A stretch of DNA of 64,000 nt from a virus (taxonomy: Duplodnaviria; Caudoviricetes): the IMG/VR virus record IMGVR_UViG_3300036971_000130; one strand, written 5' to 3'. Made by a program: the position numbers and the translations under genes. Positions 3,528-24,473 of this stretch are shown one piece after another. The first letter of the stretch is position 1. Every line of letters starts with the position of its first letter. The notes under the pieces were generated by a model that had not been told where the DNA came from, did no database searches, and saw nothing but the letters and a program-made list of their open reading frames with translations.

Positions 3528-4362
3528 CCCGACTGTCCGCCACGACTTCACCTTGCTGGTGGAGGCCGTCGACGCCAACCCGAACGGTGACCCGGATCTC
3601 GACAACGAGCCCCGCCGTGATCCGACGACCGGCCACGGGCTCATCACCGACGTGTCCGTGAAGCGTCGCCTCCGTGACTTCGTCCTCGTCGCCAAGGACG
3701 GTGACGACAGGTTCGACATCCAGGTGAAGCGAGGGCAGGCCCTCAACACGATCTCCGAGGAAGCTCGGGCAGCGATCCCGGAGAAGGCCGAGGACCGGGC
3801 CGAGAAGATCGTCGAGTGGCTTCAGAACCGCTACTTCGACATCCGGATGTTCGGCGCTGTCCTCGGAACCGGCAACGCCAAGCCGAGGCTCCCGAGCCTC
3901 ACCGGCCCTGTCCAGATCGGCATGGGGCGCTCCGTCGACCCGATCGAGACCTACGACATCTGCATCACCCGTCTGGTCGTCACCGACGAGAAGGACAAGG
4001 AGAAGGAGCAGACGATGGGCCGCAAGTGGGTGACCCCGTACGGTCTCTACGTCGTCCACGGCACCTACTCCGGCATCCTCGGTGCGAAGTCGGGTGTCAC
4101 CGAAGAAGACCTCGACTGCATGTGGCAGGGTCTCTCCGGTCCCATGTTCGACCTGGCAGCGTCGACCTCGAAGTTCGGTGTCTCGACTCGTGGCCTCATC
4201 GTCCACTCGCACGAGACCCCGATGGGCAACGCTTCCCGTGCCGCTGTCCAGGCGACCACGAAGATCACCCCGAACCACGATGGCGCTCCCCGATCCTTCG
4301 AGGACTACACCATCACCTTCGAAGACATGCCGTCGAAGGTGACCCGGACGATTCTCGTCTGA
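3511..4362 (+). CDS. cas7: Cas7c/Csd2
   Basis: ANPNGDPD..NEPRRD, ITDVSVKRRLRD, DIRMFGAV, TMGRKW. Confidence 0.95.
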   Translation: MTSPNDPTVRHDFTLLVEAVDANPNGDPDLDNEPRRDPTTGHGLITDVSVKRRLRDFVLVAKDGDDRFDIQVKRGQALNTISEEARAAIPEKAEDRAEKIVEWLQNRYFDIRMFGAVLGTGNAKPRLPSLTGPVQIGMGRSVDPIETYDICITRLVVTDEKDKEKEQTMGRKWVTPYGLYVVHGTYSGILGAKSGVTEEDLDCMWQGLSGPMFDLAASTSKFGVSTRGLIVHSHETPMGNASRAAVQATTKITPNHDGAPRSFEDYTITFEDMPSKVTRTILV

Positions 4363-4514
4363 GTTGCGAGAGGTCCGATGACGACCCGACCGTTCACCGC
4401 ACCACCCCAGATCACAGACCTGCTGGTGAGGCAGATGATCAGTGAATCAGGGACCTCTCGCAACAACGGTCGTTCCCGCAGGTCAGAGATGACCGAAACC
4501 AGGAACGGTCGAAA

Positions 4515-4774
4515 CGCCGTCTACGGACGGCGAGGATTTCAACGGACGGCGAGGATCGGAACATCATCACGTCGATGCGACCGAGTCGCATTGCGCCGTC
4601 ACCAGACGGCGAGAATCGCAACAAGCCATCTGCCTCCGCAAGAGGTCCCGTCCCTACCGGGGCGGGAGAATTGGAACTACCCTGCCGAATCCACGTCGTC
4701 ACCAGGCGACGAGAATCGAAACATGGACCATGTCAACCCACTGTCCGCCGTCTCCGGGCGGCGAGGATCGCAAC
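4515..4774 (+). CRISPR. Degenerate type I-C mini-array: 5 full + 1 half repeat, intervals 16-31 nt
   Basis: Repeats 4515-43, 4544-62 (half), 4594-4622, 4646-77, 4694-4722, 4746-74: 7-9 bp hairpin plus tail resembling GAGGATCGCAAC. Confidence 0.85.
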
Positions 4775-4962
4775 ACCGACGGCAGGGACCACGAGAAGGA
4801 GACGATCGGCAGCCGGGACATCCCCGGTTACCGCCCAGTCAAGGTGGCCGACGACGAGGACGAGGACGAGGTGCTGGACGCCATCGGCCCCATCAGCATC
4901 CACGACCTGATCAACCAGTTCTTCGGCTGACGCCCGGTCAGATCCTCGATCTGACGTTTCGC

Positions 4963-4997
4963 ACGACGACCCCGGACGCTATGTTCGGGGTCGTCGT
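4963..4997. terminator. Long GC hairpin after the array, probable terminator
   Basis: ACGACGACCCCGGAC-gctat-GTTCGGGGTCGTCGT. Confidence 0.6.
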
Positions 4998-5112
4998 CGT
5001 TCACCACCCATGATGGGTGTGCACCATTCGCATCAACCAAGAGAGCCCGAAATCCAGACATAGCGCCCAGGCGGGGACATACCACCCATGATGGGTGGAG
5101 GAAAGCATCACC

Positions 5113-9900: not shown

Positions 9901-11103
9901 AAGGACTACGCCCTCGGGTTCTGCACCACGTACTTCGAGGCAGCGGGCACGCTCATGCACATCTACGAGAACGTGGTTCGTGCTCGTGTGGCCTTGAACG
10001 GCCAGTACGGCGCTTCGTCGTTCATGGATCTGCCGGAGGAAGTCCGCCCGAACCGAGTGCTCATCTTCATCGACGAGTTCACGTCGCTCCTTCAGATGGA
10101 TGCAGTCCCGAAGGGCGATGACCCGGACACGATCCAGGAAGCCGAGATCATGTCCGAGCGCAACGAGGCTCGTCGGGCCATCTCGTCGATGGTCGGCAAG
10201 ATCGTTCGTGAAGCTCGATCCGCTGGTGTCACCATCGCCATCGGTGCTCAGGCGATGAAGTCCGACTTCCTGAAGACGCTCCCTGGTGGTGCTGGCATGA
10301 AGGACTCGATGGCTCGTATCCTCATGGGTAACGCAAGCCACGGCGAACGTGCGTCGGCGCTCCGGATGGGCCACAAGGCTCAGGCGATGCCGACAGCGAT
10401 CATCCCGAAGGGCCGAGGCTGGTGGGAGTCTTCCACGGCTGGTTCAGCTTCGGTCATCCAGGTGTGGTTCGCCACGCAGAGCACGTACGCTGCCGCTCTC
10501 GAAGGCATGCCTCTCGCTGACCCGGATCGGATCATCGACCAGGAGCAGTTCTCCGAGCCGGTCGTCCACTCGTTCATGCAAGAGGCCGAGGAAGGCACCT
10601 CGTTCACTGATGGCGTCTTCGTCGAGGACGATGACGAGGTCATCGAACTCGGTTCGTTCCAGGGGTTCACGATCCCTGACGCCCCGGATGACGAGCGTGT
10701 CGCTCCGTTCGTGATCGAGACCGTCGACGACGATGACGAAGGGTTCTCGTCCTTCGATGACCTCCCAGAGATCGTCGTCGACGAACCTGTCCGTCCGGCG
10801 GTGGTGACGGTCGGGTTCGCCGGTGAGGCTGGTGACGTGCAGATCCAGTCGATCGACGAGTTCCTGGCGTGGCTGGACACGGCTGTCGGTTCTGACGTGG
10901 TCGTGAACGTCGCCTCGGACCAGGCGGATGAACTGGTTGGCACGGTGGAGGCGATCTTCGGCCCTGGCATGGTCAGCTTCGTCGTGACCGAACCGGAACC
11001 AGAGCCCGAACCAGAACCGGTACGTCGAGTCTCGCCGTCCAGAATGACGTGGGGAGCCGAGATCGGCAACGGTGGGTTCGATGATGACGACTTCCTGTCC
11101 TGA
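6982..11103 (+). CDS. Membrane-anchored FtsK/SpoIIIE-family ATPase
   Basis: N-terminal TMs; PHLLLAGSSGGGKS, MDPMKG, IFIDEF, EARSAGV, PKGRG; acidic tail. Confidence 0.85.
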   Translation: MAQPFQQPSHAPLIIGVSALIGCGFAYLGFPAFAIIWLGFVVAAYLEPPVILTGKKDQYGSPTPLHDGESKRLRSFAFWRELRTSLIVPNASWLPGWPILGSFIGAVVAALIGWSLPVMFVQLQPVNAVCGFIVISAVMSARRKTMADGDVYGGARLNTLDDYLKENRPIAVISVLLGIVVAVLVATKVPQWQETSAKQVLTDQKTGEVVPHSATTMPPPQTTEAGSPPTIEYVIPTVDITPDPKATATKNPDLIVSGLVDYGTRSIIPLTIAGFFIGFFALTARPWSKRSIEHWKEVVAARAEWQPRWRAAGLKDDTFPWLVERERVGQFQVDTFIADPSLAAQTIIDTKANAIRPTIGAGMNMVALSTPDARNGEPVPGTVHLRRFQIVVWDGDLTDFSDPDADMDELTLSARIGFAEACDASGMLRSEIVEITPMHDLSPVPSDEDEDDEGDDLPAIPDITPQKNYGAVWAVQTTMGGATRTFRENSRGAIAGRFGVDCIIDDRRPDLNGVLFLGTLLEDGVTGRDVPERFTMPSPDREPNWPSMFRHIDMEDHYRTTWQQFLPQPEMYPTPHWDLEMDREIITKKGKSVVHGLAFVCRQGVPPNTFTNAKTEKNLATTWEAPLMVNMNSFRHNIGTGQSAKRQDIVSHAQAIFLSWSTDHIPSSIVNLPLQVQGNSPGSTSVKYSASVPSEPIIWVIQHYVNKAFDQVKKPRPDVMTAKCLTRKDSPEALWEIELKVVGGETIETLRSATERLRVAFQVPWCLVTTWESGVTIFVGGDPFNPKTNLVNPDRDAARLKGYSWEQAFISCGISGSDGVMPKLQDYKLLPSNNDIEVLKFSLPPGISPTTFKEKKDKLSTAKGYTYIEIVDSADPKVLEMMVCAEDPTPTAVMIGPAELDIIENSSGVPFATNILGEVVAYDPKESPHLLLAGSSGGGKSVLAQVLLYGALKRGWDIYVMDPMKGAADFSFTKDYALGFCTTYFEAAGTLMHIYENVVRARVALNGQYGASSFMDLPEEVRPNRVLIFIDEFTSLLQMDAVPKGDDPDTIQEAEIMSERNEARRAISSMVGKIVREARSAGVTIAIGAQAMKSDFLKTLPGGAGMKDSMARILMGNASHGERASALRMGHKAQAMPTAIIPKGRGWWESSTAGSASVIQVWFATQSTYAAALEGMPLADPDRIIDQEQFSEPVVHSFMQEAEEGTSFTDGVFVEDDDEVIELGSFQGFTIPDAPDDERVAPFVIETVDDDDEGFSSFDDLPEIVVDEPVRPAVVTVGFAGEAGDVQIQSIDEFLAWLDTAVGSDVVVNVASDQADELVGTVEAIFGPGMVSFVVTEPEPEPEPEPVRRVSPSRMTWGAEIGNGGFDDDDFLS

Positions 11104-11123
11104 CACATCCCTCGGTGAGCCTG

Positions 11124-11132
11124 CAATAGTTC
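11124..11132 (+). promoter_or_regulatory. Class II promoter motif CAATAGTTC (also 54934, 61623, 63239)
   Basis: Start codon begins exactly 13 nt after the motif's first base in all four copies. Confidence 0.7.
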
Positions 11133-11136
11133 AGAC

Positions 11137-11640
11137 ATGACGCAGACCTTCAACCCGAACGAACACCCACGGAACGCAGTCGGCAGGTTCACCGAGGCCT
11201 ACTTCGAGAAGGCGTCCGTCGATCTCGGCGCAACGCTGAATCCGATATTCGTCCCATTTGATCCGGAGCAGATCAACCGTGCTCAGACCCGGATCGCCGG
11301 GGCCGAGGACGCAAAGCTGAATCGGTTCGTGGCTCGCCGTGCCCGAGGCACGATGAGCGTTCGGAAGATGGAAGACCTGCTCGATCAGCGAGTGTCGATG
11401 CTCGTGCTTCAGGATGATGGCTCCGTCGAAGCGTGGGAGGGGACGCTCGTCAAGGGCGTTGGCTCGCTCTGGGGCTTCAAGAAGAAGCGTGAGCGGAACT
11501 TCGGTGGCCCCCGTTCGGTCCATATCGAGGGTGATGTCGACCGGGTATTCGCTATCGAGTCCGGCTACGGAAGCTCCGAGGCGATGACCCGGAAGTTCCA
11601 CCAGGATTCGGCCAAGTGGGACGAAGCAGGAGTTGGGTGA
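11137..11640 (+). CDS. Hypothetical protein with N-terminal HPRxxxGRF motif
   Basis: Leaderless ORF; MTQTFNPNEHPRNAVGRFT. Confidence 0.7.
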   Translation: MTQTFNPNEHPRNAVGRFTEAYFEKASVDLGATLNPIFVPFDPEQINRAQTRIAGAEDAKLNRFVARRARGTMSVRKMEDLLDQRVSMLVLQDDGSVEAWEGTLVKGVGSLWGFKKKRERNFGGPRSVHIEGDVDRVFAIESGYGSSEAMTRKFHQDSAKWDEAGVG

Positions 11641-11641
11641 A

Positions 11642-12238
11642 ATGGCAGACCAGACTGGCAAGACCAGGGATCAGCCCCGTGACTCGGGAAGGTTCGGGAA
11701 CAAGGATCGTGGCAGCGGACCGAACCTGACCCTCGACAGCCCCTCGCCTGGGTACGACACCGGTGGAATCAAGGTGGTACCGGACATCCCGGTCATCCTG
11801 AAGTTCGAGGAAGCCAAGTGGCAGACGCCGCACATCCGCCCAGTCGACTACCGGAACATCGACTCGTACTCGGGCTACGACGAGGACGACGCCGAGTGGG
11901 TCGGTGAGGTCATCGTGATGAACCACCCCCAGTACGGGCCTGTGGCCTTCCTCGCCAAGAGGCAGCGTCTCGGGTCTGTGTCCGGGACCGTCGTCTCCCC
12001 GGACGGCTACGTCAAGGGTGACGTGTTCTCGAAGGACCTGATCGACGAGCGTGGCGCTGCCGTCGATGGCTACCGCATCGGCAACATCGACAGCGATTCG
12101 ATCGCTGAACTCCGGAGCCAGATCGACAAGGACAGCGGCGGGTACGACCCGGACGACCCGTACACGCCTCCGCAGTCCCCAGCGGCAACCCAGAAGTTCT
12201 GGGGCATGGTCATGGAAGGGTGCGATCAGCAGGCATGA
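11642..12238 (+). CDS. Hypothetical protein with N-terminal QPRxxGRF motif
   Basis: MADQTGKTRDQPRDSGRFG; adjacent to previous gene. Confidence 0.65.
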   Translation: MADQTGKTRDQPRDSGRFGNKDRGSGPNLTLDSPSPGYDTGGIKVVPDIPVILKFEEAKWQTPHIRPVDYRNIDSYSGYDEDDAEWVGEVIVMNHPQYGPVAFLAKRQRLGSVSGTVVSPDGYVKGDVFSKDLIDERGAAVDGYRIGNIDSDSIAELRSQIDKDSGGYDPDDPYTPPQSPAATQKFWGMVMEGCDQQA

Positions 12239-12525
12239 ACGTCGACCTCGAAGACGCCATCTCCGACCACTCCTACCTTGGTGAAGACCATGTGGAGACC
12301 CTCCGGAACGAGGGCGGTGCGGTGTTCATCAACCAGGACGATGTCATCGAGTGTCGTTGGCGTGATGAGGACACCGGGGTCGTCTTCTCGGTGTGGTTCG
12401 AGTCGGGGCACTTCGAGACGTACTGGTGGTCGAAGGACGACGGCGTCTACGACGAGGTCGAGTCCGACTACGACTGCGACTTCGTCACCGTGATCCTCGA
12501 ACTGAGGTCTGACGGCGCAGGCTGA
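12235..12525 (+). CDS. Small acidic protein, paralog of next gene
   Basis: Shared ETYW.S...GV.DE motif. Confidence 0.6.
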   Translation: MNVDLEDAISDHSYLGEDHVETLRNEGGAVFINQDDVIECRWRDEDTGVVFSVWFESGHFETYWWSKDDGVYDEVESDYDCDFVTVILELRSDGAG

Positions 12526-12538
12526 CTATGCTGCGTGT

Positions 12539-12832
12539 ATGGAACCCACCGTCGAAGACATCGTCGCATCTCATCCCCATGTCACGGCCGAGGACATCGC
12601 CATGTTCAAGGCTGCTGGTGCTGGCGTGTTCGTCGGTGAGGACGGGCGCTCGATCAACCTTCGATGGTCGAGGCTGAAGCCTCGGCTGGTGTTCGATGCC
12701 CTGCTTCCAACAGAGGGGATCGAGACCTACTGGTTCTCCGAGGAACACGGTGTCCACGATGAGCGTGAAGTCGGCTACGATGGCTCCGTGATCGAGTCTG
12801 TCCTGCGGATCAAGGCTGATCGCAAGGTCTGA
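12539..12832 (+). CDS. Small acidic protein, paralog of previous gene
   Basis: ETYWFSEEHGVHDE; TATGCT -10-like upstream. Confidence 0.6.
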   Translation: MEPTVEDIVASHPHVTAEDIAMFKAAGAGVFVGEDGRSINLRWSRLKPRLVFDALLPTEGIETYWFSEEHGVHDEREVGYDGSVIESVLRIKADRKV

Positions 12833-12886
12833 CCGGCAGCGTTTCCCCAGGTCAGAGACCTATTTCTCAGAAAACGGAGAAATGGT

Positions 12887-12915
12887 TGGACAGGGAGGGC
12901 TCCACCACCCATACT
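12887..12915 (+). promoter_or_regulatory. Promoter of main tRNA array (class I)
   Basis: TGGACA-N17-CATACT, motif repeated >20 times in window. Confidence 0.75.
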
Positions 12916-13005
12916 GTTCACCGTCAGCCAGCAACCGCCGGTTTGACATCACCTCGGTGACCGACTAGTGTCACCGCCAACACCCACCAGAGAGACCCGC
13001 CTCAA

Positions 13006-13128
13006 ATGTTCACCATCTTCGCCGCCGAGACCATGGAAGGATCGCCCATCACGGGCATCACCTCCCATGTCTGTGCGTCGAAGCCGGTGAGCCGAGACTG
13101 GAATCAGCCGGAAAGGGTGGCGAAGTAG
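13006..13128 (+). CDS. Putative attenuator leader peptide, 40 aa, uses 18 amino acids (no Leu/Tyr)
   Basis: MFTIFAAETMEGSPITGITSHVCASKPVSRDWNQPERVAK; last codons overlap an antiterminator strand. Confidence 0.7.
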   Translation: MFTIFAAETMEGSPITGITSHVCASKPVSRDWNQPERVAK

Positions 13129-13159
13129 CAGAATCCGACCACAAGTCGATCTGATACCG

Positions 13160-13194
13160 AAGCCACTCCTTCCGGGGAGTGGCTTTCTGGTTTT
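13160..13194 (+). terminator. Intrinsic terminator (attenuator) upstream of tRNA array
   Basis: AAGCCACTCCT-TCCG-GGGAGTGGCTT then TCTGGTTTT; left arm can instead pair with 13108-13121. Confidence 0.8.
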
Positions 13195-13464
13195 GGAAAC
13201 ACACTGAAACAGATCGAACGGAACGAACGCCCGCTGGGAGCCAGAAATCTCAGCAACTCTCGAACTTGGAATCCCGAGCCGTGTGGAAGCGGCGGAGGTA
13301 GCTAGAGGGCATATGTACAGGACCAAGGGAAGCCAGGTTGGACCCGCTAGGAAGCCTCCCCAATGAGTCCGGGACTGTGCAGTAGAGACGCCACAAGGCA
13401 GGGGGTCAGGATGCCAGTCCTGACCCGTCTGCCAACCGGTCACCGGTTCGCCGGTGACCGTCCT

Positions 13465-13535
13465 GGGGGTATGTTCCAATGGTAGGATGACGGTCTCCAA
13501 AACCGACAGTCCGGGTTCGATTCCTGGTACCCCTG
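13465..13535 (+). tRNA. tRNA-Trp(CCA)
   Basis: Cloverleaf, loop CTCCAAA. Confidence 0.9.
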
Positions 13536-13712
13536 CAAAGGCGTGAGAATACGGGTGTCGAGGCCCGTCCGACTTCCCCAAGCTGTCGGTCATCTAAGGA
13601 AGATACACGTCACTATTCCTCTCTCGGTTGGCCGTCAACCTGATCGAGTAACGTGGAAGTCGTCGTAGGCGACAAGGCTCGTTCCGTGCCGAACGGAGCA
13701 GTTGACAGCCAT

Positions 13713-13786
<74 letters not shown>

Positions 13787-13788
13787 CT

Positions 13789-13865
13789 GGCGGGGTAGAG
13801 CAGTTTGGTAGCTCGACAGCCTCATAAGCTGTAGGTCACGGGATCGAAGCCCGTCCCCGCACCCA
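13789..13865 (+). tRNA. tRNA-Met(CAT), initiator-like
   Basis: 1:72 mismatch and fMet-type D arm, but no 3GC anticodon pairs; T loop ATCGAAG. Confidence 0.8.
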
Positions 13866-14178
13866 TCTCGTCATCGCCGGATCGGCAAAATCCGGGTCTC
13901 GGAAAACCGGGGTATGCTGCCAGCCTCACAGGCTGGTTAGCTCTCGGCCAGTACGAGGCAGATGACACAACCACAGCAACTCACTGCGTCCTTGCCAGGT
14001 GAGGTGGGTCGCTGTGGAAGTTCTCTGTCAGCCGGGACGGCAATCCCGGTGCTTGGAAGGGGACCCTGGTCGGCGCTTCGGCGTATCAGAAGGGGTCCCT
14101 GGTCCTGGCACGATAGGCAACCGAGCGAAGGAGGCTCCGCACTTGCCGGTGCGGAGCCGATCTCCCTCGGAAGTTCTT

Positions 14179-14251
14179 GGGGTCGTAGCTCAGTTGGTAG
14201 AGCACCTGCCTTGCAAGCAGGATGTCAGGGGTTCGATTCCCCTCGGCTCCA
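14179..14251 (+). tRNA. tRNA-Ala(TGC)
   Basis: loop CTTGCAA, G3:U70. Confidence 0.93.
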
Positions 14252-14533
14252 CAGGGACCGTGATGGTCCAAACAGAACAACCCGTCATCTCTTGCGTAGG
14301 GGTAAGTTGGCACTTCCTCAAAGCCACCGCTATCGGGCGGCAATGCTGGGGTCGGACCCAGCCCGGCGGCTGAAACCGTCGGTCGGCTAAATCGGACGTG
14401 GGAGAAGTCGTTTCGTCAGGGAACGACTACTGTCGAGCGTGAACCCAGGGCGATGTCCTGGGAGGTGTAGGAACGGGAATGGCTGACCGGAGGGTCGTAG
14501 ATGCCAAGCTACGGCCACTGGAAGGCCCCTCAT

Positions 14534-14611
14534 GGTGTTCGTAGCTCAGTTGGCTAGAGCGCAGCGTTGTGGTCGCTGAGGTCGCGGGTTCGAACCCCGT
14601 CGTTCACCCCA
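14534..14611 (+). tRNA. tRNA-His(GTG)
   Basis: G-1, loop TTGTGGT, CCA. Confidence 0.88.
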
Positions 14612-14748
14612 ATCGTCAGGTCGGAAGACCTTGGACGTAGAACATCCTGCATCGAAAGTGATCGAGCAGGTTGCTTCCTGACCGCCGACAGGGAAGCGTA
14701 ATGCCGTGGACAAGGGAGCTAGCCCCAACTCCACAAAGTCGGCTCCAT

Positions 14749-14821
14749 GCCCGGATAGCTCAGTTGGCAGAGCGTCCGTCTGAAAAGCGGAAGGTCACCG
14801 GATCGACTCCGGTTCCGGGCA
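14749..14821 (+). tRNA. tRNA-Phe(GAA)
   Basis: loop CTGAAAA. Confidence 0.92.
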
Positions 14822-14954
14822 CGCAAACCGGCCGCAAGCCGGTGGAGGTCGGAGGCATCCGACACAACGGGTTCGCTGACACCCCGTAGTCACGGTCGAC
14901 CGTGAAGAACTGGTCGGCGGGTAGGTATACCCGTCGATACGGAGTCAGTGCCAT

Positions 14955-15030
14955 GCGGTTGTAGCTCAGTCTGGTTAGAGCGTCTCGTTGCCAAAGAAGG
15001 TCGAGGGTTCGAATCCCTCCTGCCGCTCCA
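14955..15030 (+). tRNA. tRNA-Gly(GCC), anticodon stem defective
   Basis: TCTCG-TTGCCAA-AGA: 3' strand about 2 nt short. Confidence 0.7.
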
Positions 15031-15223
15031 TGACCCCCGCAAGGGAGCAGCGTCGGGTTGATCTCCGACAGGTGAAGGACCGTCGTAGTCCTTCGTGAGA
15101 CGGTGTCGAAACCGTCGACCATCCGTGAACGTGACGGGAAGGTGAAGTGGCCGTCTTGCACCGGTCCGGCTTCCGTAAGGGGGTCGAGATGAAGTGAAGC
15201 ATCGTCACCGATACGACACACAT

Positions 15224-15296
15224 GGGGGTGTAGCTCAGTTGGTAGAGCGCCTGGCTCTTAACCAGGATGTCGTGGGTTCGATCCCCTCCGCCCCTA
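15224..15296 (+). tRNA. tRNA-Lys(CTT)
   Basis: loop CTCTTAA. Confidence 0.92.
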
Positions 15297-15333
15297 CCGC
15301 TCTTGTGGACAGAGCCGAAACGTCCACCTTCCT

Positions 15334-15406
15334 TCCCAGGTAGCTCAACTGGTAGAGCATCCGGCTGTTAACCGGAGGGTTGCAGGTTCGAACCCTGCCC
15401 TGGGAG
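15334..15406 (+). tRNA. tRNA-Asn(GTT)
   Basis: loop CTGTTAA. Confidence 0.93.
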
Positions 15407-15557
15407 CTTGCAGTGATCTCCTTCACGACGGTGTTCCGCCATCGAAGTGAAGTCCGGTGAGCGACGACGTGAGAAACCGTTGCGATCCAACAAGGAACGT
15501 AGGTTCCTGGTATGCGGAGACAGGATGTCTCGATCCGGCCAGATCGAACGACCTGTA

Positions 15558-15635
15558 GTGTCTGTAGCTCAGTTCGGTCAGAGCGCCTGTCGTCGAGACA
15601 GGAGGTCGCTGGTTCGATTCCAGTCAGGTCCACCA
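15558..15635 (+). tRNA. Atypical tRNA, anticodon TCG (Arg?), G33, weak acceptor stem
   Basis: CCTGT-CGTCGAG-ACAGG; D and T arms normal; ACCA end. Confidence 0.6.
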
Positions 15636-15636
15636 T

Positions 15637-15710
15637 GCCGGTATAGCTCAGTTGGCTAGAGCGTCCCGCTCATAACGGGGAGGCCACTGGTTCGAGTCCA
15701 GTTACCGGTA
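15637..15710 (+). tRNA. tRNA-CAT (elongator Met or Ile2)
   Basis: loop CTCATAA. Confidence 0.88.
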
Positions 15711-15741
15711 CTGGTCCGCCGCAGACCTACTGCGACAACAA

Positions 15742-15818
15742 CGGGACGTGGCTCAGCTTGGTAGAGCGGGCGCTTCGGGGGCGTCAGGTCGTGGGTTCAA
15801 ATCCCGCCGTCCCGACCA
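15742..15818 (+). tRNA. tRNA-Pro(CGG)
   Basis: loop TTCGGGG. Confidence 0.9.
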
Positions 15819-15866
15819 AAGGTCAGTCGCAGACCTTGTGCCCATTCGGGCCAACTGCGACAACAA

Positions 15867-15941
15867 CGGGACGTAGCTCAGTTTGGCTAGAGCGGGCGCT
15901 TTGGGAGCGTCAGGCCGTCGGTTCGAGTCCGGCCGTCCCGA
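15867..15941 (+). tRNA. tRNA-Pro(TGG)
   Basis: loop TTTGGGA. Confidence 0.92.
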
Positions 15942-15977
15942 CAAGGTCAGCACGAACCTCGATCGTGCAAGGAACAA

Positions 15978-16051
15978 CCCTGGTTAGCTCAGAGGTAGAG
16001 CGCCGCCATGTCAGGCGGAGGTCAGTGTATCGAAAGCACTACTGGGGGCCA
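15978..16051 (+). tRNA. Atypical tRNA-Asp(GTC)-like, 6-nt anticodon loop
   Basis: CCGCC-ATGTCA-GGCGG; T loop ATCGAAA; GCCA end. Confidence 0.6.
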
Positions 16052-16052
16052 T

Positions 16053-16127
16053 GCACGTATAGCTCAGCGGCAGAGCGGCTCCCTTACAAGGAGTTGGTCG
16101 GGGGTTCGAGTCCCTCTGCGTGTACCA
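16053..16127 (+). tRNA. tRNA-Val(TAC)
   Basis: loop CTTACAA. Confidence 0.92.
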
Positions 16128-16226
16128 AAGTCAGCGGACAGGCTTCGGTATCCGCCATCCCCGGTGATGTCAAAATCCGGCGCTTCGTGGGAAGCGACAG
16201 CGTCCAGAAGGTCGCACCCACACTGA

Positions 16227-16300
16227 CCGGATGTAGCTCAATTGGAGAGAGTGCCTGACTACGAATCAGGAGGTTGGGGGTTCGAGTCCCTCCGTCCGGG
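16227..16300 (+). tRNA. tRNA-Arg(ACG)
   Basis: loop CTACGAA. Confidence 0.9.
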
Positions 16301-16467
16301 CTAGGGGGACCAGCGGGTCGCTACCGTTGGGCGCTCCTGAACCGACATGAATCGACGACTAGCTACCGTCAGCAACTCACCCCGCATGAAGGTGAGCTTC
16401 GGTGTGAGACCCGATGTCGGTACCATCTCCCGTCGAATGACGGCCCCGAGAGTGGCACTCTCAACAC

Positions 16468-16543
16468 GCCGCTTTAGCTCAGTTGGTAGAGCGCACCCAT
16501 GGTAAGGGTGAGGTGACCGGTTCGATCCCGGTAGGCGGCTCCA
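16468..16543 (+). tRNA. tRNA-Thr(GGT)
   Basis: loop ATGGTAA. Confidence 0.9.
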
Positions 16544-16544
16544 T

Positions 16545-16617
16545 TTCGGGATAGTTCAGTTGGTAGAACGCCTGGCTCTGAACCAGGAGGTCGGAGGTTC
16601 GAACCCTTCTCCCGAAG
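16545..16617 (+). tRNA. tRNA-Gln(CTG)
   Basis: loop CTCTGAA. Confidence 0.92.
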
Positions 16618-16674
16618 CAACGCTCGGCTTGTCCGGGCAGAACACCACCTTCTTGCTCGACGGGAAGGTCTCCA

Positions 16675-16751
16675 CGGGACATGGCGCAGCTTGGTAGCGC
16701 ACCGCTCTGGGGGAGCGGGGGTCGTCGGTTCAAATCCGGCTGTCCCGACCA
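16675..16751 (+). tRNA. tRNA-Pro(GGG)
   Basis: loop CTGGGGG. Confidence 0.9.
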
Positions 16752-16843
16752 AGAGGTCTGAAGGGCGATCGTGGGCACCCGTCAACGGTCGATACCACCA
16801 CCTCTGATCCAGCCGAAGGCCGAAGATAGGTTGGGTCGACCAT

Positions 16844-16919
16844 CACAGCGTAGCCAAGGTGGTCAAGGCAACCGTCTGCAAAACGGGAGATAGGGGTTCA
16901 ACTCCCCTCGCTGTGTCCA
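16844..16919 (+). tRNA. tRNA-Cys(GCA)
   Basis: loop CTGCAAA, U73. Confidence 0.9.
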
Positions 16920-16972
16920 AGGATGTCGAAGTTGGGCATCGTCTGCAATGCCACCCATGATGGGTGTATCAA

Positions 16973-17051
16973 GTCCTCGTAGCTCAGTCTGGTCCAGAGC
17001 GCCGCCCTGTCAAGGCGGAGGTCGCCGGTTCAAATCCGGTCGGGGACGCCA
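16973..17051 (+). tRNA. tRNA-Asp(GTC)
   Basis: loop CTGTCAA; internal promoter at 16933-16961. Confidence 0.93.
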
Positions 17052-17097
17052 TCCACATCTGGTGGTCGCTTGACGAGAGCGTATCTCGTCCCAACAT

Positions 17098-17173
17098 GCC
17101 CCGTTGGTCTAGTCAGGTTCAGGACGTTGGACTCTCAATCCAAAGGTCACGGGTTCAAATCCCGTACGGGGTA
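17098..17173 (+). tRNA. tRNA-Glu(CTC)
   Basis: loop CTCTCAA. Confidence 0.92.
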
Positions 17174-17207
17174 CTCAACGCCCGGCGAGAGCGCATCTTG
17201 CCAACAG

Positions 17208-17280
17208 GCCCCGGTCGTCTAGCGGCCTAGGACGCTGGCCTTTCAAGCCGGTAGCACGGGTTCGAATCCCGTTCGGGGTG
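17208..17280 (+). tRNA. tRNA-Glu(TTC)
   Basis: loop CTTTCAA. Confidence 0.92.
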
Positions 17281-17283
17281 CTA

Positions 17284-17361
17284 CGAGAAGTTCTGGTGAA
17301 GCAACTGGTGTTGCGGCCTCTCCGAGAGAGGTGCAGGCGGGTTCGATTCCCGTCACCTCGA
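17284..17361 (+). ncRNA. tRNA-like element with broken acceptor stem
   Basis: GCGGG-TTCGATT-CCCGT T arm, D-like and anticodon-like hairpins; only 4 contiguous acceptor pairs. Confidence 0.5.
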
Positions 17362-17512
17362 ACATCGTCAAGGCACGGCACGAGCCATTCCGATCGGATG
17401 GGGAGGGTCGTCGAGTAGGGCGTGAAGGCGATGGTCCACGACTGACCGCAGACCGTACATCTGCAACCTCCACGCACCCTCCTGCTCCGTTCCAGGCAGC
17501 CATGGAACCCTT

Positions 17513-17589
17513 GCGGATGTAGCTCAGTTGGTTAGAGCGTCTGGTTCCCAACCAGAAGGTCGAGGATTCGAGTTCCTCCATCCGCTCCA
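17513..17589 (+). tRNA. tRNA-Gly(CCC)
   Basis: loop TTCCCAA. Confidence 0.92.
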
Positions 17590-17591
17590 AT

Positions 17592-17682
17592 GGAAGGTAG
17601 GTCAGATATTGGTTTGCTGCGCCAGCCTCGAAAACTGGTTGGGTGAAAGTCCATGAGGGTTCGATTCCCTTGCCTTCCGCCA
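17592..17682 (+). tRNA. tRNA-Ser(CGA)
   Basis: long variable arm, loop CTCGAAA, GCCA. Confidence 0.88.
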
Positions 17683-17696
17683 TCTCAAACACCCTT

Positions 17697-17787
17697 GGAG
17701 GGTAGGCAACTGTTGGTTCGTTGCAACGGTCTGGAAAGCCGTGGGGTCTTCGGGCTCCCAAGGGTTCGATTCCCTTACCCTCCGCCA
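17697..17787 (+). tRNA. tRNA-Ser(GGA)
   Basis: loop CTGGAAA. Confidence 0.9.
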
Positions 17788-17795
17788 GACTTCTT

Positions 17796-17886
17796 GGAGA
17801 GTAGGCGTACTACTGGTTTGTCGCGCTCGGTTGCTACCCGAGTTGGGTGAAAGTCCATGAGGGTTCGATTCCCTTGCTCTCCGCCA
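17796..17886 (+). tRNA. tRNA-Ser(GCT)
   Basis: loop TTGCTAC. Confidence 0.88.
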
Positions 17887-17896
17887 TCGCACCCTT

Positions 17897-17986
17897 GGAG
17901 GGTAGGCAGATATTGGCGAGTTGCTGCGGCAGTCTTGAAAACTGTTTGGGTGAAAGCCCATGAGGGTTCGATTCCCTTGCCCTCCG
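17897..17986 (+). tRNA. tRNA-Ser(TGA)
   Basis: loop CTTGAAA. Confidence 0.9.
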
Positions 17987-18011
17987 CTCGCTTGGTGACT
18001 AGGTTGAGGCC

Positions 18012-18323
18012 ATGAAGTTCCTCGCCATCATCGTCGCATCTCTGGCTCTCGTTTCCTGCTCGTCAGGGACCGAGGCTGCGAAGCCGGACATCTGCACGAC
18101 CTCGTTGCGCTCCGGTGAGGCTATGTCCGCATCGGCCATCAAGGACTGCGGCTCCGACAGGATCATGGCCGACAAGATCGTCGTGTCTGAGTCCTGCGGT
18201 TCCGTGACCTGGTTCACCGTGCAGGACGACTCCGATGTCTTCCTGTTCCGTCAGGGTGTCCCAGCCATCCAACTTCCGGCAGGAACCGAGTTCTCGTTCC
18301 CAGACAAGACACCGGACTGCTGA
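18012..18323 (+). CDS. Small lipoprotein
   Basis: Signal peptide with lipobox LVSC. Confidence 0.7.
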   Translation: MKFLAIIVASLALVSCSSGTEAAKPDICTTSLRSGEAMSASAIKDCGSDRIMADKIVVSESCGSVTWFTVQDDSDVFLFRQGVPAIQLPAGTEFSFPDKTPDC

Positions 18324-18356
18324 ACAACCACCAACCGATCGAGAAAGGATCGCCCG

Positions 18357-18401
18357 ATGCTGAACGCCAAATCGCCCTCACGGGCGACCTCCTGCGTCTG
18401 A
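18357..18401 (+). CDS. Putative 14-aa leader peptide (AAA and CGG codons)
   Basis: GAAAGGA SD, MLNAKSPSRATSCV, directly before tRNA-Lys(TTT)/Arg(CCG). Confidence 0.5.
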   Translation: MLNAKSPSRATSCV

Positions 18402-18426
18402 CGCAGATCGTCCGTACTCCCGTCTC

Positions 18427-18502
18427 GGGGGTCTAGCTCCAATGGTAGAGCAGCGGACTTTTAATCCGACGGTTGAGGGTTCGACCCCCTCGGCCCCCAC
18501 CA
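18427..18502 (+). tRNA. tRNA-Lys(TTT)
   Basis: loop CTTTTAA. Confidence 0.9.
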
Positions 18503-18503
18503 T

Positions 18504-18580
18504 GCCTGCATAGCTCAGTTGGACAGAGCGTCTGGTTCCGGACCAGAAGGTCGGAGGTTCGAGTCCTCCTGTGGGCACCA
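18504..18580 (+). tRNA. tRNA-Arg(CCG)
   Basis: loop TTCCGGA. Confidence 0.92.
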
Positions 18581-19287
18581 GCCCGAAGACGGGAGGCAAG
18601 GGAGGCGGGTCTCCGTTCGAGCAGACCACAACCACCGGCAAGAAGCCGGTCCCGACGACCGCTGCCGAGCAGACCACGACTTCCGAGGCCACCACGACCA
18701 CCGAAGCCGCCTCCTACGACGAGAACTCGCCTTCCGCCGACCTCGATCGTGTGCTCACGAAGAACGATGTCGTCGCTGCGATCTCGCTCGTCGGTGACGA
18801 GGGCACGGATGTCAGCGAGTACCAGAAGATCGACTCCGACTTCGCTTCGCTGTTCGACATCTGCCCCGGCACCTCGGACGTGATCCCGAACGGGACGCTC
18901 GTCGGCAAGGAGTGGAAGAAGCCCTCCGGCGATGTCCTCCTGATCGTCGCTGGGATCGACTCGGACACGCTCGTCGATGACGACCAGAACGAGATCCTCG
19001 TCGACAAGTTCAACAACTGCAAGATCGACGGCGACGATGACGAAGGCAACAGCGTCTACGTGAGCGCCTTCGCCAACAAGTCCTACCAGGACAACTCGTT
19101 CTCGTGGGACATCTCCGCTCGTTCCTACCTGGTCGACGGCACCACCAAGAAGTTCGCCACGGACGGCTACTCGTTCCGCTACGGGAACGTCTCGGTCCTC
19201 GTCATGCGAGCCTCCATCGAGGATCGCTACGACCAGGATGTCACGGACATGGCACGGGAACTTCGTGCCGAGTTGGTGATGTCCTGA
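18571..19287 (+). CDS. Thr-linker extracellular-type protein, 5' end uncertain or truncated by tRNA
   Basis: Coding-like codon usage; no signal peptide; start overlaps tRNA-Arg 3' end. Confidence 0.55.
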   Translation: MGTSPKTGGKGGGSPFEQTTTTGKKPVPTTAAEQTTTSEATTTTEAASYDENSPSADLDRVLTKNDVVAAISLVGDEGTDVSEYQKIDSDFASLFDICPGTSDVIPNGTLVGKEWKKPSGDVLLIVAGIDSDTLVDDDQNEILVDKFNNCKIDGDDDEGNSVYVSAFANKSYQDNSFSWDISARSYLVDGTTKKFATDGYSFRYGNVSVLVMRASIEDRYDQDVTDMARELRAELVMS

Positions 19288-19340
19288 CCCACCACCCATG
19301 ATGTAGGTGTCCCGGTTTCGGCCGGGACCCGCATCATCCT

Positions 19341-19411
19341 GCGGGCGTAGCTCAATGGTAGAGCATCTGGCTTCCAACCAGAGTATGAGGGTTCGATTCC
19401 CTTCGCCCGCT
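19341..19411 (+). tRNA. tRNA-Gly(TCC)
   Basis: loop CTTCCAA. Confidence 0.92.
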
Positions 19412-19565
19412 CTCGGAACTGGCCGTGCGGCCCTTAACCAACGGCCGGTTCCTACTTTCGCCACATCGGTACGCCGATGGTCGTCGACCCTGAAGCCGAC
19501 GGGGGTCGTGAAGCGAGATACCCACCCACCCTGGTACCAAGGGAGGGATGGCACGTCGGCTCCAT

Positions 19566-19641
19566 GCCTGGTTAGCTCAGTTGGTAGAGCATCCCCCTCG
19601 TAAGGGGAAGGCCGTCGGTTCGATCCCGACACCAGGCTCCA
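19566..19641 (+). tRNA. tRNA-Thr(CGT)
   Basis: loop CTCGTAA. Confidence 0.93.
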
Positions 19642-19643
19642 AA

Positions 19644-20000
<357 letters not shown>

Positions 20001-20044
20001 TTCGACCTAGGACACAGGTCATCTCACCACCCATGATGGGTGAC

Positions 20045-20260
20045 ATGCAGACGACCTACGCATCACCCTTCCACCTTCGTGCCGGAGACAAGGTTCTCGA
20101 AACCGATGGTTCGGTTCTCGAAGTCATCAATGTCGGCCAGGTCTTCGATGTGATCACCTGCGGTCTGCACGCTAAGATCGAGCTTCGTGACCAGAACGGT
20201 GAGACCATCACGGAGAACGTGCCGGGCAACGCCAAGGTGAAGAAGGTCATTCCGGAGTAG
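20045..20260 (+). CDS. Small hypothetical protein; stop codon lies inside tRNA-Gln
   Basis: Leaderless after class I promoter. Confidence 0.65.
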   Translation: MQTTYASPFHLRAGDKVLETDGSVLEVINVGQVFDVITCGLHAKIELRDQNGETITENVPGNAKVKKVIPE

Positions 20261-20323
20261 TTCAACTGGCAGAACGACGGGTTTTGGACCCGTTTGTTGC
20301 GGGTTCGAATCCTGCCTCCGGAT
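20251..20323 (+). tRNA. tRNA-Gln(TTG)
   Basis: loop TTTTGGA. Confidence 0.9.
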
Positions 20324-20359
20324 CTAGGTTGGACATCGTCCAGCCCACCACCCATAATG

Positions 20360-20960
20360 GGTTCGTAAGATAGAGCGATCCGATCAGCTTCTTGCGGGAA
20401 GCTGTTAGGACGGCGGACCAGGCCGCAACCTGGTTGGGTGCCCAGCAATGGGGTCCGCCGCCGGTCAGCTTGATCCCCTTCGGGGTAGGGTTGGCGAGCA
20501 CGAACGGAGATACCTTCGACGATTCGTTCGTAGTACCAGTCGAGGGTCGGAGCGGTAAGCTCCGGCAGTCGGGTGTCATGGGCACGTAACGCCTTCGGCA
20601 CCCGACCGGAACACCCAAGTCGTCGCAGCGACTCAAAACAGTGCTTAGGCTGCGAGCGTTCGCTGAACAGCGAGGTGCACTGACCGATCGGATTGCAGTC
20701 CGAGAGGCGGTAGAACAGAGAGACTGCAATCTCTCCGTGATGCCGGTTCACCTGCGTGGTGAGCGAAGGGGTCCAGTCCGAATCCAAGGTCTGGGTCTAG
20801 TGACTTATCGGAGCAGTCCAAGTACATGGGCTGTGTGTGAAATCCCCCAGGGCGACCCCTGGGGGACGAAGCGAGATGGCTACATCACGAACCTAGACGG
20901 CAGTCGAAGTTCGAGGTGGGAGCCACAAACCGGGGGAGGACCCATGTCCTCCCCCGGTAC
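20360..20960 (+). ncRNA. Large structured ncRNA candidate (ROOL/GOLLD size class)
   Basis: Own promoter TGGACA-N17-CATAAT (20330-58); many nested helices; no credible ORF; closing hairpin 20929-58. Confidence 0.65.
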
Positions 20961-20967
20961 ATTTCAG

Positions 20968-21041
20968 GCCGAAATAGCTCAGTTGGCTAGAGCGGCCGTC
21001 TTGTAATCGGCAGGCCATGGGTTCGATTCCCATTTTCGGCT
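20968..21041 (+). tRNA. tRNA-Thr(TGT)
   Basis: loop CTTGTAA. Confidence 0.9.
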
Positions 21042-21259
21042 CAAACCGGTCCTACAGCGGAACTCTGTAGGGGTGTCAGGTGAAACCCAGCCGGGAAGAT
21101 GGTCCGAGAGGGCCGGACTTGCTGGTGGAACCACCTGGCTAGAATCGGAAGGTCGTCCCGATGGCTCCACGGAGCACAGGGCCATAGCACCGACACTCCC
21201 CGGATATGCTGGCGGGGAAGCCACCAACAGGACAGTCAACCCCTGGTGGTGGCACATAA

Positions 21260-21336
21260 CGACCCGTGGCTCAGCCCGGTAGAGCAGCACCATGACGCGG
21301 TGAAGGTCGGAGGTTCGAATCCTCTCGGGTCGACCA
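21260..21336 (+). tRNA. tRNA-Val(GAC)
   Basis: loop ATGACGC, ACCA. Confidence 0.8.
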
Positions 21337-21380
21337 ACTCCCCCTTCCAAGGGGAGTGAAGACGTGGCGTCTCTACTAGC

Positions 21381-21409
21381 TTGCCCTACATCACCAAGTG
21401 GTGTAGGGT
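21381..21409 (+). promoter_or_regulatory. Promoter of Y-RNA/Ro60 unit overlapped by palindrome
   Basis: TTGCCC-N17-TAGGGT; CCCTACAtCAC-caa-GTGgTGTAGGG. Confidence 0.6.
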
Positions 21410-21421
21410 GAGCAAGAACTC

Positions 21422-21568
21422 TCTGCGAGCCAAAGGTTCCCTGTTACCTACACTGCGAATGTACCCCAATCGGGGGACCATCAATCGCCCGCAGAACACT
21501 CTCAGATCAAGCCAAGATCGTCTGATTACCCTTCTGTCACCTCAGACCATCGCCATCGCCTGATCCGA
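21422..21568 (+). ncRNA. Two tandem Y-RNA-like units (21422-95, 21502-68)
   Basis: 5'/3' end pairing, shared AGCCAA..TTACC..ATCGCC; directly 5' of Ro60. Confidence 0.55.
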
Positions 21569-21635
21569 ACCCAACTGAACACCGCCAGGACACGCCAGAT
21601 CGGCGGTCCGAGCCACGATCCCAAAGGGACACACC

Positions 21636-23228
21636 ATGACGTACAAGAACCTCGCCACCCGCCCGCACCTCACTTCGACGCCGCAGACGAAGCAGTCCGA
21701 TCCTCGTCAGGTGAAGAACGCCGCCGGTGGCTACGTGTTCACGATCTCAGACGAAGACCTCCTGCGCCGGTTCCTGATCCTCGGGACGACCGCCGGGACG
21801 TACTACGTGAACGGCACGAAGCACACAGCCGACACGTTCGAGAAACTGCGAGGTGTTTTGGACCGCCTGGGTGCCCGGTTCGTGGACATCGTCGTCGAGG
21901 TCTCCGATGGAGGTCTCGCTCCGAAGAACGACGAAGCGATCCTCATGTTGGCTCTCGCCACCTCGGCGGAGGACCCGGTCGTGAGGAAGTACGCTCTCGA
22001 TGCGCTGCCGAAGGTGGTCCGCATCGGAACGCACATGTTCCAGTTCTCGACCTTCGTGCAGCAGTTCCGTGGCAACGGCCCGGCGCTGATGAAGGCCATG
22101 CGTCGTTGGTACACCGATCGTTCGCCGGAGTCCTTGGCGTACCAGTTGGTGAAGTACCAGCGTCGGAACGGCGTGAGCACGAAGACGGTCCTCGGGGTCG
22201 TCCGACCGAAGCCGAAGAACCCGGAACAGGGAGTCGCCTTCGAATGGGCTGTCGGGAAGCGTGGTGACCAGAAGACCGGTCTCCGTGCGATCGACGGCTA
22301 CATCGCCGCTCACACCGAGGGTGCGGACATCCCTGCTCTCGTCCGTGAGTTCGGACTGACCCACGAGATGCTGCCGTCGCAGTCACTCAGCGATCCCGCT
22401 GTGTGGGTCGCCCTGGTCGAGAAGATGGGCCTCACCGCTCTGATCCGGAACCTGGGTCGTCTCACGAAGCTCGGCGTCCTCGACGACCGTGCGATCCGTG
22501 CTGACGTGATCTCCCGCATCACCGACCACGAGAGCATCCGTGCTGCTCGTGTCCACCCGATCGCCTTCCTGTTCGCTCTCACGGCGTACAAGTCCGGTGC
22601 AGGGCGTTCCGGCACGGAGTGGACCCCGATCCCGTCGATCATCGACGCTCTGGACAAGGGCTTCGTCGAGGCGTTCGTGAACGTGGAGTCCACCGGGAAG
22701 CGTCGTCTCATCGCTCTGGACGTGTCCGGCTCGATGGGGATTGAGTTCATCGCCAACTCGAAGCTCTCCGCTCGGGATGCTTCGGCGGCTCTGACGAAGA
22801 TCGCTCTCACCGTCGACGACTGCGATGTCATCGCTTTCACCAGCGGTGATCGCCGAACCCACCGGGACGCTGTCGCTCCGTTGACGATCTCCGCCAACCA
22901 GCGGCTCGACGACATCATCGACGACATCTCGGACCTCCCGTTCGGTCACACGAACTGTGCTCTGCCGTTCGAGTGGGCTTTGGAGAACGACCGTGTCTAC
23001 GACTCGGTCGAGGTCTACACGGACTGCGAGACGTGGGGTGGGAACCAGCACGTCCACGAGGCGCTGGCGAAGTACCGTCGCAAGACGGGCGTCAACACCA
23101 AGCTGATCGTGGTCGGGATGACCGCCACCGATGCGTCGATCGCTGACCCGAACGACCCCGATTCGTTGGATGTCGTCGGGTTCGATGCGTCGGCTCCGGC
23201 TGCCATCTCCCGCTTCATCTCGGCATGA
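21636..23228 (+). CDS. Ro60/Rsr (TROVE + vWA) RNA-binding protein
   Basis: QVKNAAGGYVF, LRRFLILGT..GTYY, LAYQLVKYQRR, ALIRNLGR, ALDVSGSM, YTDCETW. Confidence 0.95.
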   Translation: MTYKNLATRPHLTSTPQTKQSDPRQVKNAAGGYVFTISDEDLLRRFLILGTTAGTYYVNGTKHTADTFEKLRGVLDRLGARFVDIVVEVSDGGLAPKNDEAILMLALATSAEDPVVRKYALDALPKVVRIGTHMFQFSTFVQQFRGNGPALMKAMRRWYTDRSPESLAYQLVKYQRRNGVSTKTVLGVVRPKPKNPEQGVAFEWAVGKRGDQKTGLRAIDGYIAAHTEGADIPALVREFGLTHEMLPSQSLSDPAVWVALVEKMGLTALIRNLGRLTKLGVLDDRAIRADVISRITDHESIRAARVHPIAFLFALTAYKSGAGRSGTEWTPIPSIIDALDKGFVEAFVNVESTGKRRLIALDVSGSMGIEFIANSKLSARDASAALTKIALTVDDCDVIAFTSGDRRTHRDAVAPLTISANQRLDDIIDDISDLPFGHTNCALPFEWALENDRVYDSVEVYTDCETWGGNQHVHEALAKYRRKTGVNTKLIVVGMTATDASIADPNDPDSLDVVGFDASAPAAISRFISA

Positions 23229-23734: not shown

Positions 23735-23759
23735 AACATGTGTGGTAGCATGTAGGGCC

Positions 23760-24428: not shown

Positions 24429-24473
24429 CTCCATCGGTTAGTCTCCAAACGTCGACGACGAATGGAGACTGCA

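Follow-up and report, generated by a model that had tools for sequence, protein, structure and literature searches.

In classical attenuation, known from the trpL, hisL, leuL and pheL leaders and from the multivalent thr and ilvGMEDA leaders, slow decoding of regulatory codons leads to transcriptional read-through (PMC1183508). In the uORF attenuators of bmrCD and mef/mel, slowing of the ribosome shifts the choice between antiterminator and terminator (PMC4191407, PMC4335068). The latter sense drug-bound ribosomes and control resistance genes, unlike the leaders described below. We know of no link between peptide composition and regulated product in attenuators of that type. In T-box leaders, which sense the state of tRNA, the outcome is likewise an antiterminator or a terminator; these leaders bind one specific uncharged tRNA directly, without translation, and the 5′ strand of their antiterminator contains a GGGUGG core.

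To our knowledge, long accessory tRNA arrays are common on plasmids, phages and islands, and Anabaena, which uses a repressor, is the only case in which their control is known. The trn operon of Anabaena sp. PCC 7120 is a long tRNA array (L-array) of 26 tRNA genes on a megaplasmid; it is silent by default, being repressed by TrcR, a ribbon-helix-helix protein acting on direct repeats in the promoter, and is induced by translational stress (PMC8421152, PMC10272220). This stress induction gives a precedent for the physiological logic of the switch proposed here, although control there is exerted by a repressor and a leader-peptide attenuator is proposed for the present arrays. Other tRNA arrays, including that of the A6 plasmid considered below, have already been described (PMC4758250, PMC5966550). 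A text search of these two papers and of PMC8421152 found no mention of a leader peptide, attenuator or terminator, and our literature search returned no published account of a leader-peptide switch on tRNA arrays, in agreement with the novelty assumed in the original prediction.

The window analyzed here is a 64,000-nt stretch of DNA with a GC content of 62%, and all positions refer to its numbering. ARAGORN identified 43 tRNA genes in the window, every one on the + strand, in keeping with an L-array, for which at least 20 densely packed tRNA genes on one strand of an accessory replicon are required. The proximal array (13465–17987, + strand) comprises 27 genes, begins with tRNA-Trp and serves 18 amino acids (W, I, M, A, H, F, G, K, N, R, P, V, T, Q, C, D, E and S). 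Nine distal tRNAs (18427–25647, + strand) add no amino acid, and a further cluster (32669–33301, + strand) consists of five Leu and two Tyr genes, to which the Leu and Tyr tRNAs of the window are confined.

A putative leader unit lies ahead of the proximal array on the + strand. A promoter, a 40-codon ORF, a terminator and the tRNA array had been predicted in this order, and each element was found where it had been placed. The promoter-like site P1 (12887–12915, TGGACA-17-CATACT), detected by scan, carries the element-wide ACCCATNNT motif and is nearly identical to the ACCCATNNT copy at 32168–32197, which precedes a leaderless ATG. A second promoter-like site, P2 (12943–12971, TTGACA-17-TAGTGT), was read from the sequence about 34 nt before the leader ATG and is a better sigma-70-like site than P1. 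The 5′ untranslated stretch (12987–13005) is purine-rich, with a conserved CAAATG start context and a Shine-Dalgarno-like run that is weak, as had been cautioned, while the homologues on cultured plasmids have a strong one. The leader ORF (13006–13128) extends over 40 codons from the ATG at 13006 to the TAG at 13126–13128 and uses 18 kinds of amino acid, Leu and Tyr being absent. Its last codons include the predicted antiterminator 5′ strand (13108–13121), which contains a GGGUGG core ending 5 nt ahead of the conserved TAG stop. A small hairpin (13125–13158), enclosed by the antiterminator helix, reaches from the stop codon to the putative intrinsic terminator (13159–13196), which has a 12-bp GC-rich stem (13159–13186) with a 4-nt loop, followed by a T-rich tail to 13196. 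The scan found no other strong terminator-like site on the + strand within 11000–22000. The spacer between terminator and tRNA-Trp (13197–13464, 268 nt) includes a conserved block at about 13290–13400 and a hairpin at 13438–13460.

The segment 13108–13121 pairs with 13163–13176 at 13 of 14 positions, one of them a G-U pair, so the predicted antiterminator pairing was confirmed. It belongs to the minimum-energy fold of 12975–13200 (z = −5.5), and none of 200 shuffles folded as well. Neither an anti-antiterminator (segment 1:2) nor a pause hairpin was found in the leader, for which the antiterminator is the minimum-energy untranslated fold, and a hairpin within the ORF (13008–13092) leaves 13108–13121 unsequestered. 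The same fold of the window also contains a pairing of the 5′ untranslated region with the 3′ arm of the terminator; by eye it is not conserved in two relatives of the window (L006 and L007), and it was dismissed as purine/pyrimidine-tract pairing. To examine the switch, we folded the segment that starts 40 nt ahead of the stop codon and includes the whole terminator tail, and a ribosome at the stop codon was mimicked by barring pairing from −15 to +12 around it. The naked RNA was predicted to adopt the antiterminator and the masked RNA the terminator, both in the window, where this outcome had been anticipated, and in L006, L007 and the leaders L123, L124, L125 and L127 from plasmids described below.

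We consider it probable that this unit acts as a ribosome-dependent transcription attenuator upstream of the long tRNA array. Transcription would begin at P2 and/or P1, and the 40-codon leader, which contains every amino acid served by the array, would be translated as RNA polymerase advances. With fast decoding, a ribosome at the stop codon would cover 13108–13121, the terminator at 13159–13196 would fold and transcription would end. Should the ribosome fall behind at one of the leader codons, whichever it is, or should translation not occur, 13108–13121 would pair with the left arm of the terminator and polymerase would read through into the tRNA genes. Because no anti-antiterminator was found, the default for untranslated RNA would be read-through; with the antiterminator in the naked fold and the terminator in the masked one, the device would read whether the ribosome gets to the stop codon in time. 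The result would be a negative feedback on tRNA supply, in which the array is on when decoding of the served amino acids is slow and off upon recovery. Translation of the leader, termination at the hairpin and the switch itself are what we infer from these sequence features.

A promoter-proximal mini-ORF, an intrinsic terminator and an exclusive antiterminator placed under the stop-codon ribosome are shared with the attenuators of amino-acid operons, and cognate regulatory codons are present here at the amino-acid level. In contrast to those systems, in which biosynthetic enzymes are controlled, the regulated genes here would be tRNAs. The leaders of amino-acid operons carry runs of one to three amino acids, whereas the present leaders have about one or a few codons for each amino acid served; they also lack a segment 1 (anti-antiterminator), and their amino-acid set co-varies with the tRNA genes. 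Like bmrCD and mef/mel, they are proposed to respond to a general slowing of the ribosome on a short upstream ORF. The class of mechanism proposed is classical attenuation; what appears to be new is its target, tRNA genes, and a design in which one leader lists as many as all 20 amino acids and follows the gene content.

The amino-acid composition of the window leader bears directly on this model. The 18 amino acids of the peptide are exactly those served by the 36 tRNAs at 13465–25647, and Leu and Tyr are missing from leader and array alike. This match had been claimed up to 17986 and extends to 25647; since the distal nine tRNAs add no kind and Leu and Tyr tRNAs occur only at 32669–33301, it does not depend on where the array is taken to end. 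The chance of obtaining this exact set in one 40-codon ORF was 1.4e-4 to 1.1e-3 under six background models, and the leader was unique in having it among 335 six-frame ORFs of 30–60 codons in the window. The original prediction had called the leader codon-matched, and in this respect it needs correcting: the match is by amino acid and not by codon or anticodon, and in complete arrays readability at the codon/anticodon level was no better than codon usage predicts.

Relatives of the window were sought in several ways. The gene directly upstream of the leader unit encodes a 97-aa orphan protein and was found in five metagenome contigs, which were uninformative because the leader is 100% identical in all of them. 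Locus searches with single proteins gave no result, a search of viral contigs for the exact window terminator gave no match, no array adjoined the genes for P0004, P0005, P0006 or P0010, and comparison of the window with phage and plasmid collections returned nucleotide matches at tRNA genes only. Further proteins encoded in the window are Ro60, a NAMPT-like enzyme, a NERD protein and an FtsK-like protein of 1373 aa. Homologues of the last share about 36% identity with it, and alignment-based searches yielded more than 100 FtsK-like loci, with adjacent arrays in L006 and L007 only.

Both L006 and L007 keep the PD-(D/E)XK, NERD and FtsK-like gene order of the window and an array with tRNA-Trp first. 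They have a −10-like TAGNNN hexamer 36–37 nt before the leader ATG, the purine-rich start context is conserved, and their leader ORFs, of 79 or 121 codons, end with a TAG 5 nt past the invariant GGGUGG. Downstream of the stop codon, both relatives have a small hairpin, which differs in sequence, then a GC-rich hairpin ending in a T-rich tail, and finally the conserved block. Apart from its ends, the ORF sequence is barely conserved among the three elements. The terminator stem shows one compensatory change from A-U to G-C between the window and the two relatives, and the antiterminator U facing the changed position pairs with A or G alike. The block of about 150 nt is conserved within the spacers of the window (13197–13464), L006 (16372–16632) and L007 (15832–16104), and several of its helices show compensatory changes; it matched no Rfam family, and the leaders of Micrococcaceae and Curtobacterium do not have it.

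If the ORF were fortuitous, a structured non-coding leader (a riboswitch, for instance, or a tRNA sensor of the T-box kind) would account for the strong fold (z = −5.5), for the conservation at the nucleotide level near the stop codon and for the invariant GGGUGG, which resembles the T-box core and likewise sits in the 5′ strand of the antiterminator. Unlike in the T-box, the conserved element here lies inside an ORF. A T-box identity, prompted by this core, was rejected after Rfam searches, in which the leaders of the window and L007 matched no family, T-box (RF00230) included, at E up to 10. An ORF with the same end position is present in all 13 leaders examined, from four lineages, and the GC3 of the three leaders measured in the window lineage (0.82, 0.76 and 0.72, with 0.82 in the window) is that of the real genes of each element. 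The leaders of cultured plasmids have good ribosome-binding sites, and a fortuitous ORF leaves the composition statistics without explanation. We therefore regard a non-coding leader as highly improbable.

The leader region of L007, used as a query, matched tRNA-Trp genes of actinobacterial megaplasmids. Ten elements of cultured Micrococcaceae and Curtobacterium, namely eight megaplasmids and two matches in species genomes, have the same layout before arrays that begin with tRNA-Trp. The eight plasmids are 375–607 kb in size and each carries an array of 34–39 tRNAs with tRNA-Trp first; their hosts are Paenarthrobacter sp. YJN-5, Pseudarthrobacter chlorophenolicus A6, Pseudarthrobacter sp. BIM B-2242, Arthrobacter sp. 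zg-Y1110, A. caoxuetaonis and three Curtobacterium strains. Upstream of each array there are an ORF of 43–52 codons, with a good Shine-Dalgarno sequence 6–7 nt ahead of its ATG (GAAAGGA or GAAAGGC), and a hairpin; in one case RefSeq lists the leader as a CDS. The distance from stop codon to tRNA-Trp is 104–121 nt in Micrococcaceae. A sample of 401 Micrococcaceae genomes added three further carriers. Searching 401 genomes of the order for the Micrococcaceae terminator pattern yielded only false positives, which lay within protein genes. A match in Streptomyces was set aside as a lone tRNA-Trp. The Mycobacteriales arrays of Tsukamurella and Mycolicibacterium pCBMA213_1, in which tRNA-Trp is internal, had no convincing leader; the only upstream ORFs encode 76–89 aa and are 350–430 nt away.

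All 20 amino acids are present in seven of the eight megaplasmid leaders. The chance of this was 0.012–0.018 at 50–52 codons and 0.0013–0.0025 at 43–44 codons, and just 5 of 912 pooled six-frame ORFs of 40–55 codons contained all 20 kinds. Diverged pairs of leaders retain the full set (conditional P of 0.03–0.09 per pair), and in diverged members of the Micrococcaceae group several single-copy residues occupy non-identical aligned positions. The Micrococcaceae peptides have conserved stretches in common, and there is no obvious similarity among the peptides of Micrococcaceae, Curtobacterium and the window lineage.

The RNA structure of the plasmid leaders is less uniform. All seven Micrococcaceae homologues retain a terminator with a T tract, and the hairpin from stop codon to terminator shows compensatory changes in this family. 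Pairing between the last codons (CACCGRAG) and the left arm of the terminator (CUUCGG) is seen in L123, L124, L125 and L127. For L126, fold prediction with the stop codon masked did not produce the terminator hairpin, and the Curtobacterium leaders (L128–L130) showed a very stable hairpin, with no alternative pairing or antiterminator found; the U tract is poor in two of these three. In an alternative arrangement, the ORF would be translated and tuned to the array, and its output would not be termination. The position of the ribosome might then govern how the precursor is processed or how stable it is, for instance by way of RNase access to the first tRNA, or else the hairpin might be a processing or pause signal. 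The all-20 ORF with a large hairpin in Curtobacterium, lacking a predicted antiterminator and mostly a good U tract, is in keeping with this explanation, as are the conserved structured block after the terminator in the window lineage and a second candidate leader of the window, described below, which has alternative pairings and no canonical terminator. Against it, the window lineage and Micrococcaceae have a T-rich tail and an exclusive pairing partner placed exactly under the stop-codon ribosome, the geometry of a classical attenuator. We consider an output other than termination unlikely.

For the attenuator model, the relation between leader composition and tRNA content can be followed across elements. 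Cys is the one amino acid missing from the leader of A. caoxuetaonis, and tRNA-Cys is the one kind missing from its array. The array of element G311, reduced to 14 tRNAs, provides for W, Y, L, A, K, N, Q, R, T, P, F and G, on which ARAGORN and Rfam agree, and is without C, D, E, H, I, M, S and V; its leader of 48 codons holds all 12 served kinds, with C, D, E, I and V absent. The probability that a 47-residue peptide lacks these five was about 3e-6. Phe and Glu are absent from the A. terrae leader; the array has no tRNA-Phe, and a weak-scoring tRNA-Glu is all that it retains for Glu, which makes Glu a partial mismatch. There are also counter-cases: the Curtobacterium arrays of L128 and L130 have no detectable tRNA-Phe, and that of L130 no detectable tRNA-Val, and the leaders keep these residues. 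Over 12 elements and 19 amino acids (table cells of 9, 1, 5 and 213), absence from the leader was associated with absence from the array with a Fisher exact p of 5e-12. Full independence of such tests cannot be assumed, as the elements represent only about four lineages. Directly observed are the features of the sequence, the conservation of these features and this co-variation of composition, which is the strongest evidence for the proposed attenuator. The relatives behaved as the original prediction had expected, with the ORF kept in L006 and L007 and leader sets co-varying with arrays in the cultured carriers, and the attenuator reading gains support from this tracking over 12 elements and from the switching of the masked and unmasked folds.

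It could be argued that the unit is an independent gene for a small protein or small RNA, that the array is transcribed from another promoter, and that the composition match is a coincidence or a property of the peptide. The unit does have its own promoter and terminator, the terminator of the window is separated from tRNA-Trp by 268 nt, the Micrococcaceae peptides have conserved stretches in common, and internal promoters occur elsewhere in the array. However, neither a promoter consensus nor a ACCCATNNT copy was found between terminator and tRNA-Trp in the window (13197–13464), and the short distance from stop codon to tRNA-Trp in Micrococcaceae (104–121 nt) leaves the ORF close to the array. 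Leaders that are dissimilar between lineages are yet each maximally diverse in composition, and the amino acids lost from leaders coincide with losses of the same tRNAs. An independent gene is thus quite unlikely in our estimation.

A second candidate leader in the window (32452–32576, + strand) precedes the Leu/Tyr cluster. It consists of TTGACA-16-TAGGAT and, after 7 nt, a leaderless ATG at 32487 that opens a 29-codon ORF. The encoded peptide has six Leu and one Tyr (composition p of 0.002–0.007), and its Leu-rich segment pairs with 32617–32630, with ribosome masks altering the fold; a canonical terminator was not found in this leader. A leader for Leu and Tyr would fit a split array having split leaders.

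More generally, leaders that list the amino acids of their array may be a widespread class of sensors by which mobile elements monitor tRNA supply and which tune themselves to the array, a possibility for which we see the balance as tilting slightly in favor. In such a class, a leader would drop an amino acid upon loss of the tRNA gene and would split when the array splits. The element would then replace only tRNAs within its supply, for instance after the action of tRNA-cleaving toxins or under translational stress, and a leader without Cys, or one without Asp, Glu, Ile, Val and Cys, would be blind to their shortage. The tRNA content of an array would be predictable from about 50 codons. A multivalent attenuator, up to 20-valent, acting on tRNA genes would be a new design of a classical mechanism and would explain why arrays stay silent until decoding fails. 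The idea is open to direct tests, since carriers are in culture, among them Arthrobacter and Curtobacterium strains as well as Pseudarthrobacter chlorophenolicus A6 and Paenarthrobacter sp. YJN-5.

The reach of the proposed switch along the array may depend on internal promoter-like sites. The ACCCATNNT motif occurs in 33 copies in the window compared with 4.3 expected, an eight-fold enrichment, and stands directly upstream of tRNAs (16953, 19294 and 25467) and of leaderless genes. Promoter-like ACCCATNNT sites in the array are at 16953, 19294, 20029, 20350 and 25467, with other examples at 5006 and 32189. The internal site that had been suspected at 16933 exists (16933–16961, + strand): TTGGGC-17-CATGAT lies within ACCCATGAT, 12 nt before tRNA-Asp. 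Such sites may transcribe the distal tRNAs independently, so the leader may gate the proximal part of the array alone. The motif could serve as a promoter −10 element, an operator or both; many of its copies form the inverted repeat ACCCAT-N-ATGGGT.

The distal tRNAs (18427–25647) are mixed with further ACCCATNNT sites and with genes for other RNAs and proteins. A full-length class A bacterial RNase P RNA is located at 19647–20001 within the array (181 bits against a gathering score of 100), and a Pistol ribozyme match occupies 20618–20680 in the interval between tRNA-Gln and tRNA-Thr (59.3 bits against 34.5), downstream of the ACCCATAAT promoter-like site at 20350. Adjoining the array, the gene at 21636–23228 codes for a Ro60/TROVE protein that includes a vWA domain, and weak Y-RNA-like (YrlA) matches overlap tRNA pairs at 15247–15392, 18467–18533 and 25512–25633. 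Upstream, type I-C cas genes (cas3, csd1/cas8c and cas7) at 20–5100 precede the block of PD-(D/E)XK, NERD and FtsK-like genes.

Some of the tRNA genes are unusual in themselves. The five tRNA-Leu genes at 32669–33301 are 74–78 nt each, and those of L007 are 85–87 nt. A long variable arm is typical of bacterial tRNA-Leu, and the length of the window genes implies that it is missing. In the interval between tRNA-Pro and tRNA-Val (15978–16051), ARAGORN called a tRNA with an abnormal two-base anticodon (gt), and the A. terrae array contains a tRNA call with a four-base anticodon (L139, at about 15588). Many of the spacers between tRNAs at 13537–17512 are 100–440 nt, unusually long for a dense array, and weak tRNA-Sec-like matches at 17295–17357 and 17592–17678 suggest decayed or unusual tRNAs.

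Among the Micrococcaceae, L134 (G045:C118) has an HNH-endonuclease-like ORF in the approximately 650 nt between leader ORF and tRNA-Trp; its leader contains only 16 kinds of amino acid, and the contig is too short to show the whole array. In the plasmids L123–L131, genes in or near the arrays encode SecY/SecG, ClpX, DnaE, WhiB, thioredoxin reductase and HAD proteins, together with RtcB, an ATP-dependent RNA ligase and a Thg1-like enzyme. These array-associated genes look like a module for tRNA repair and translation support.
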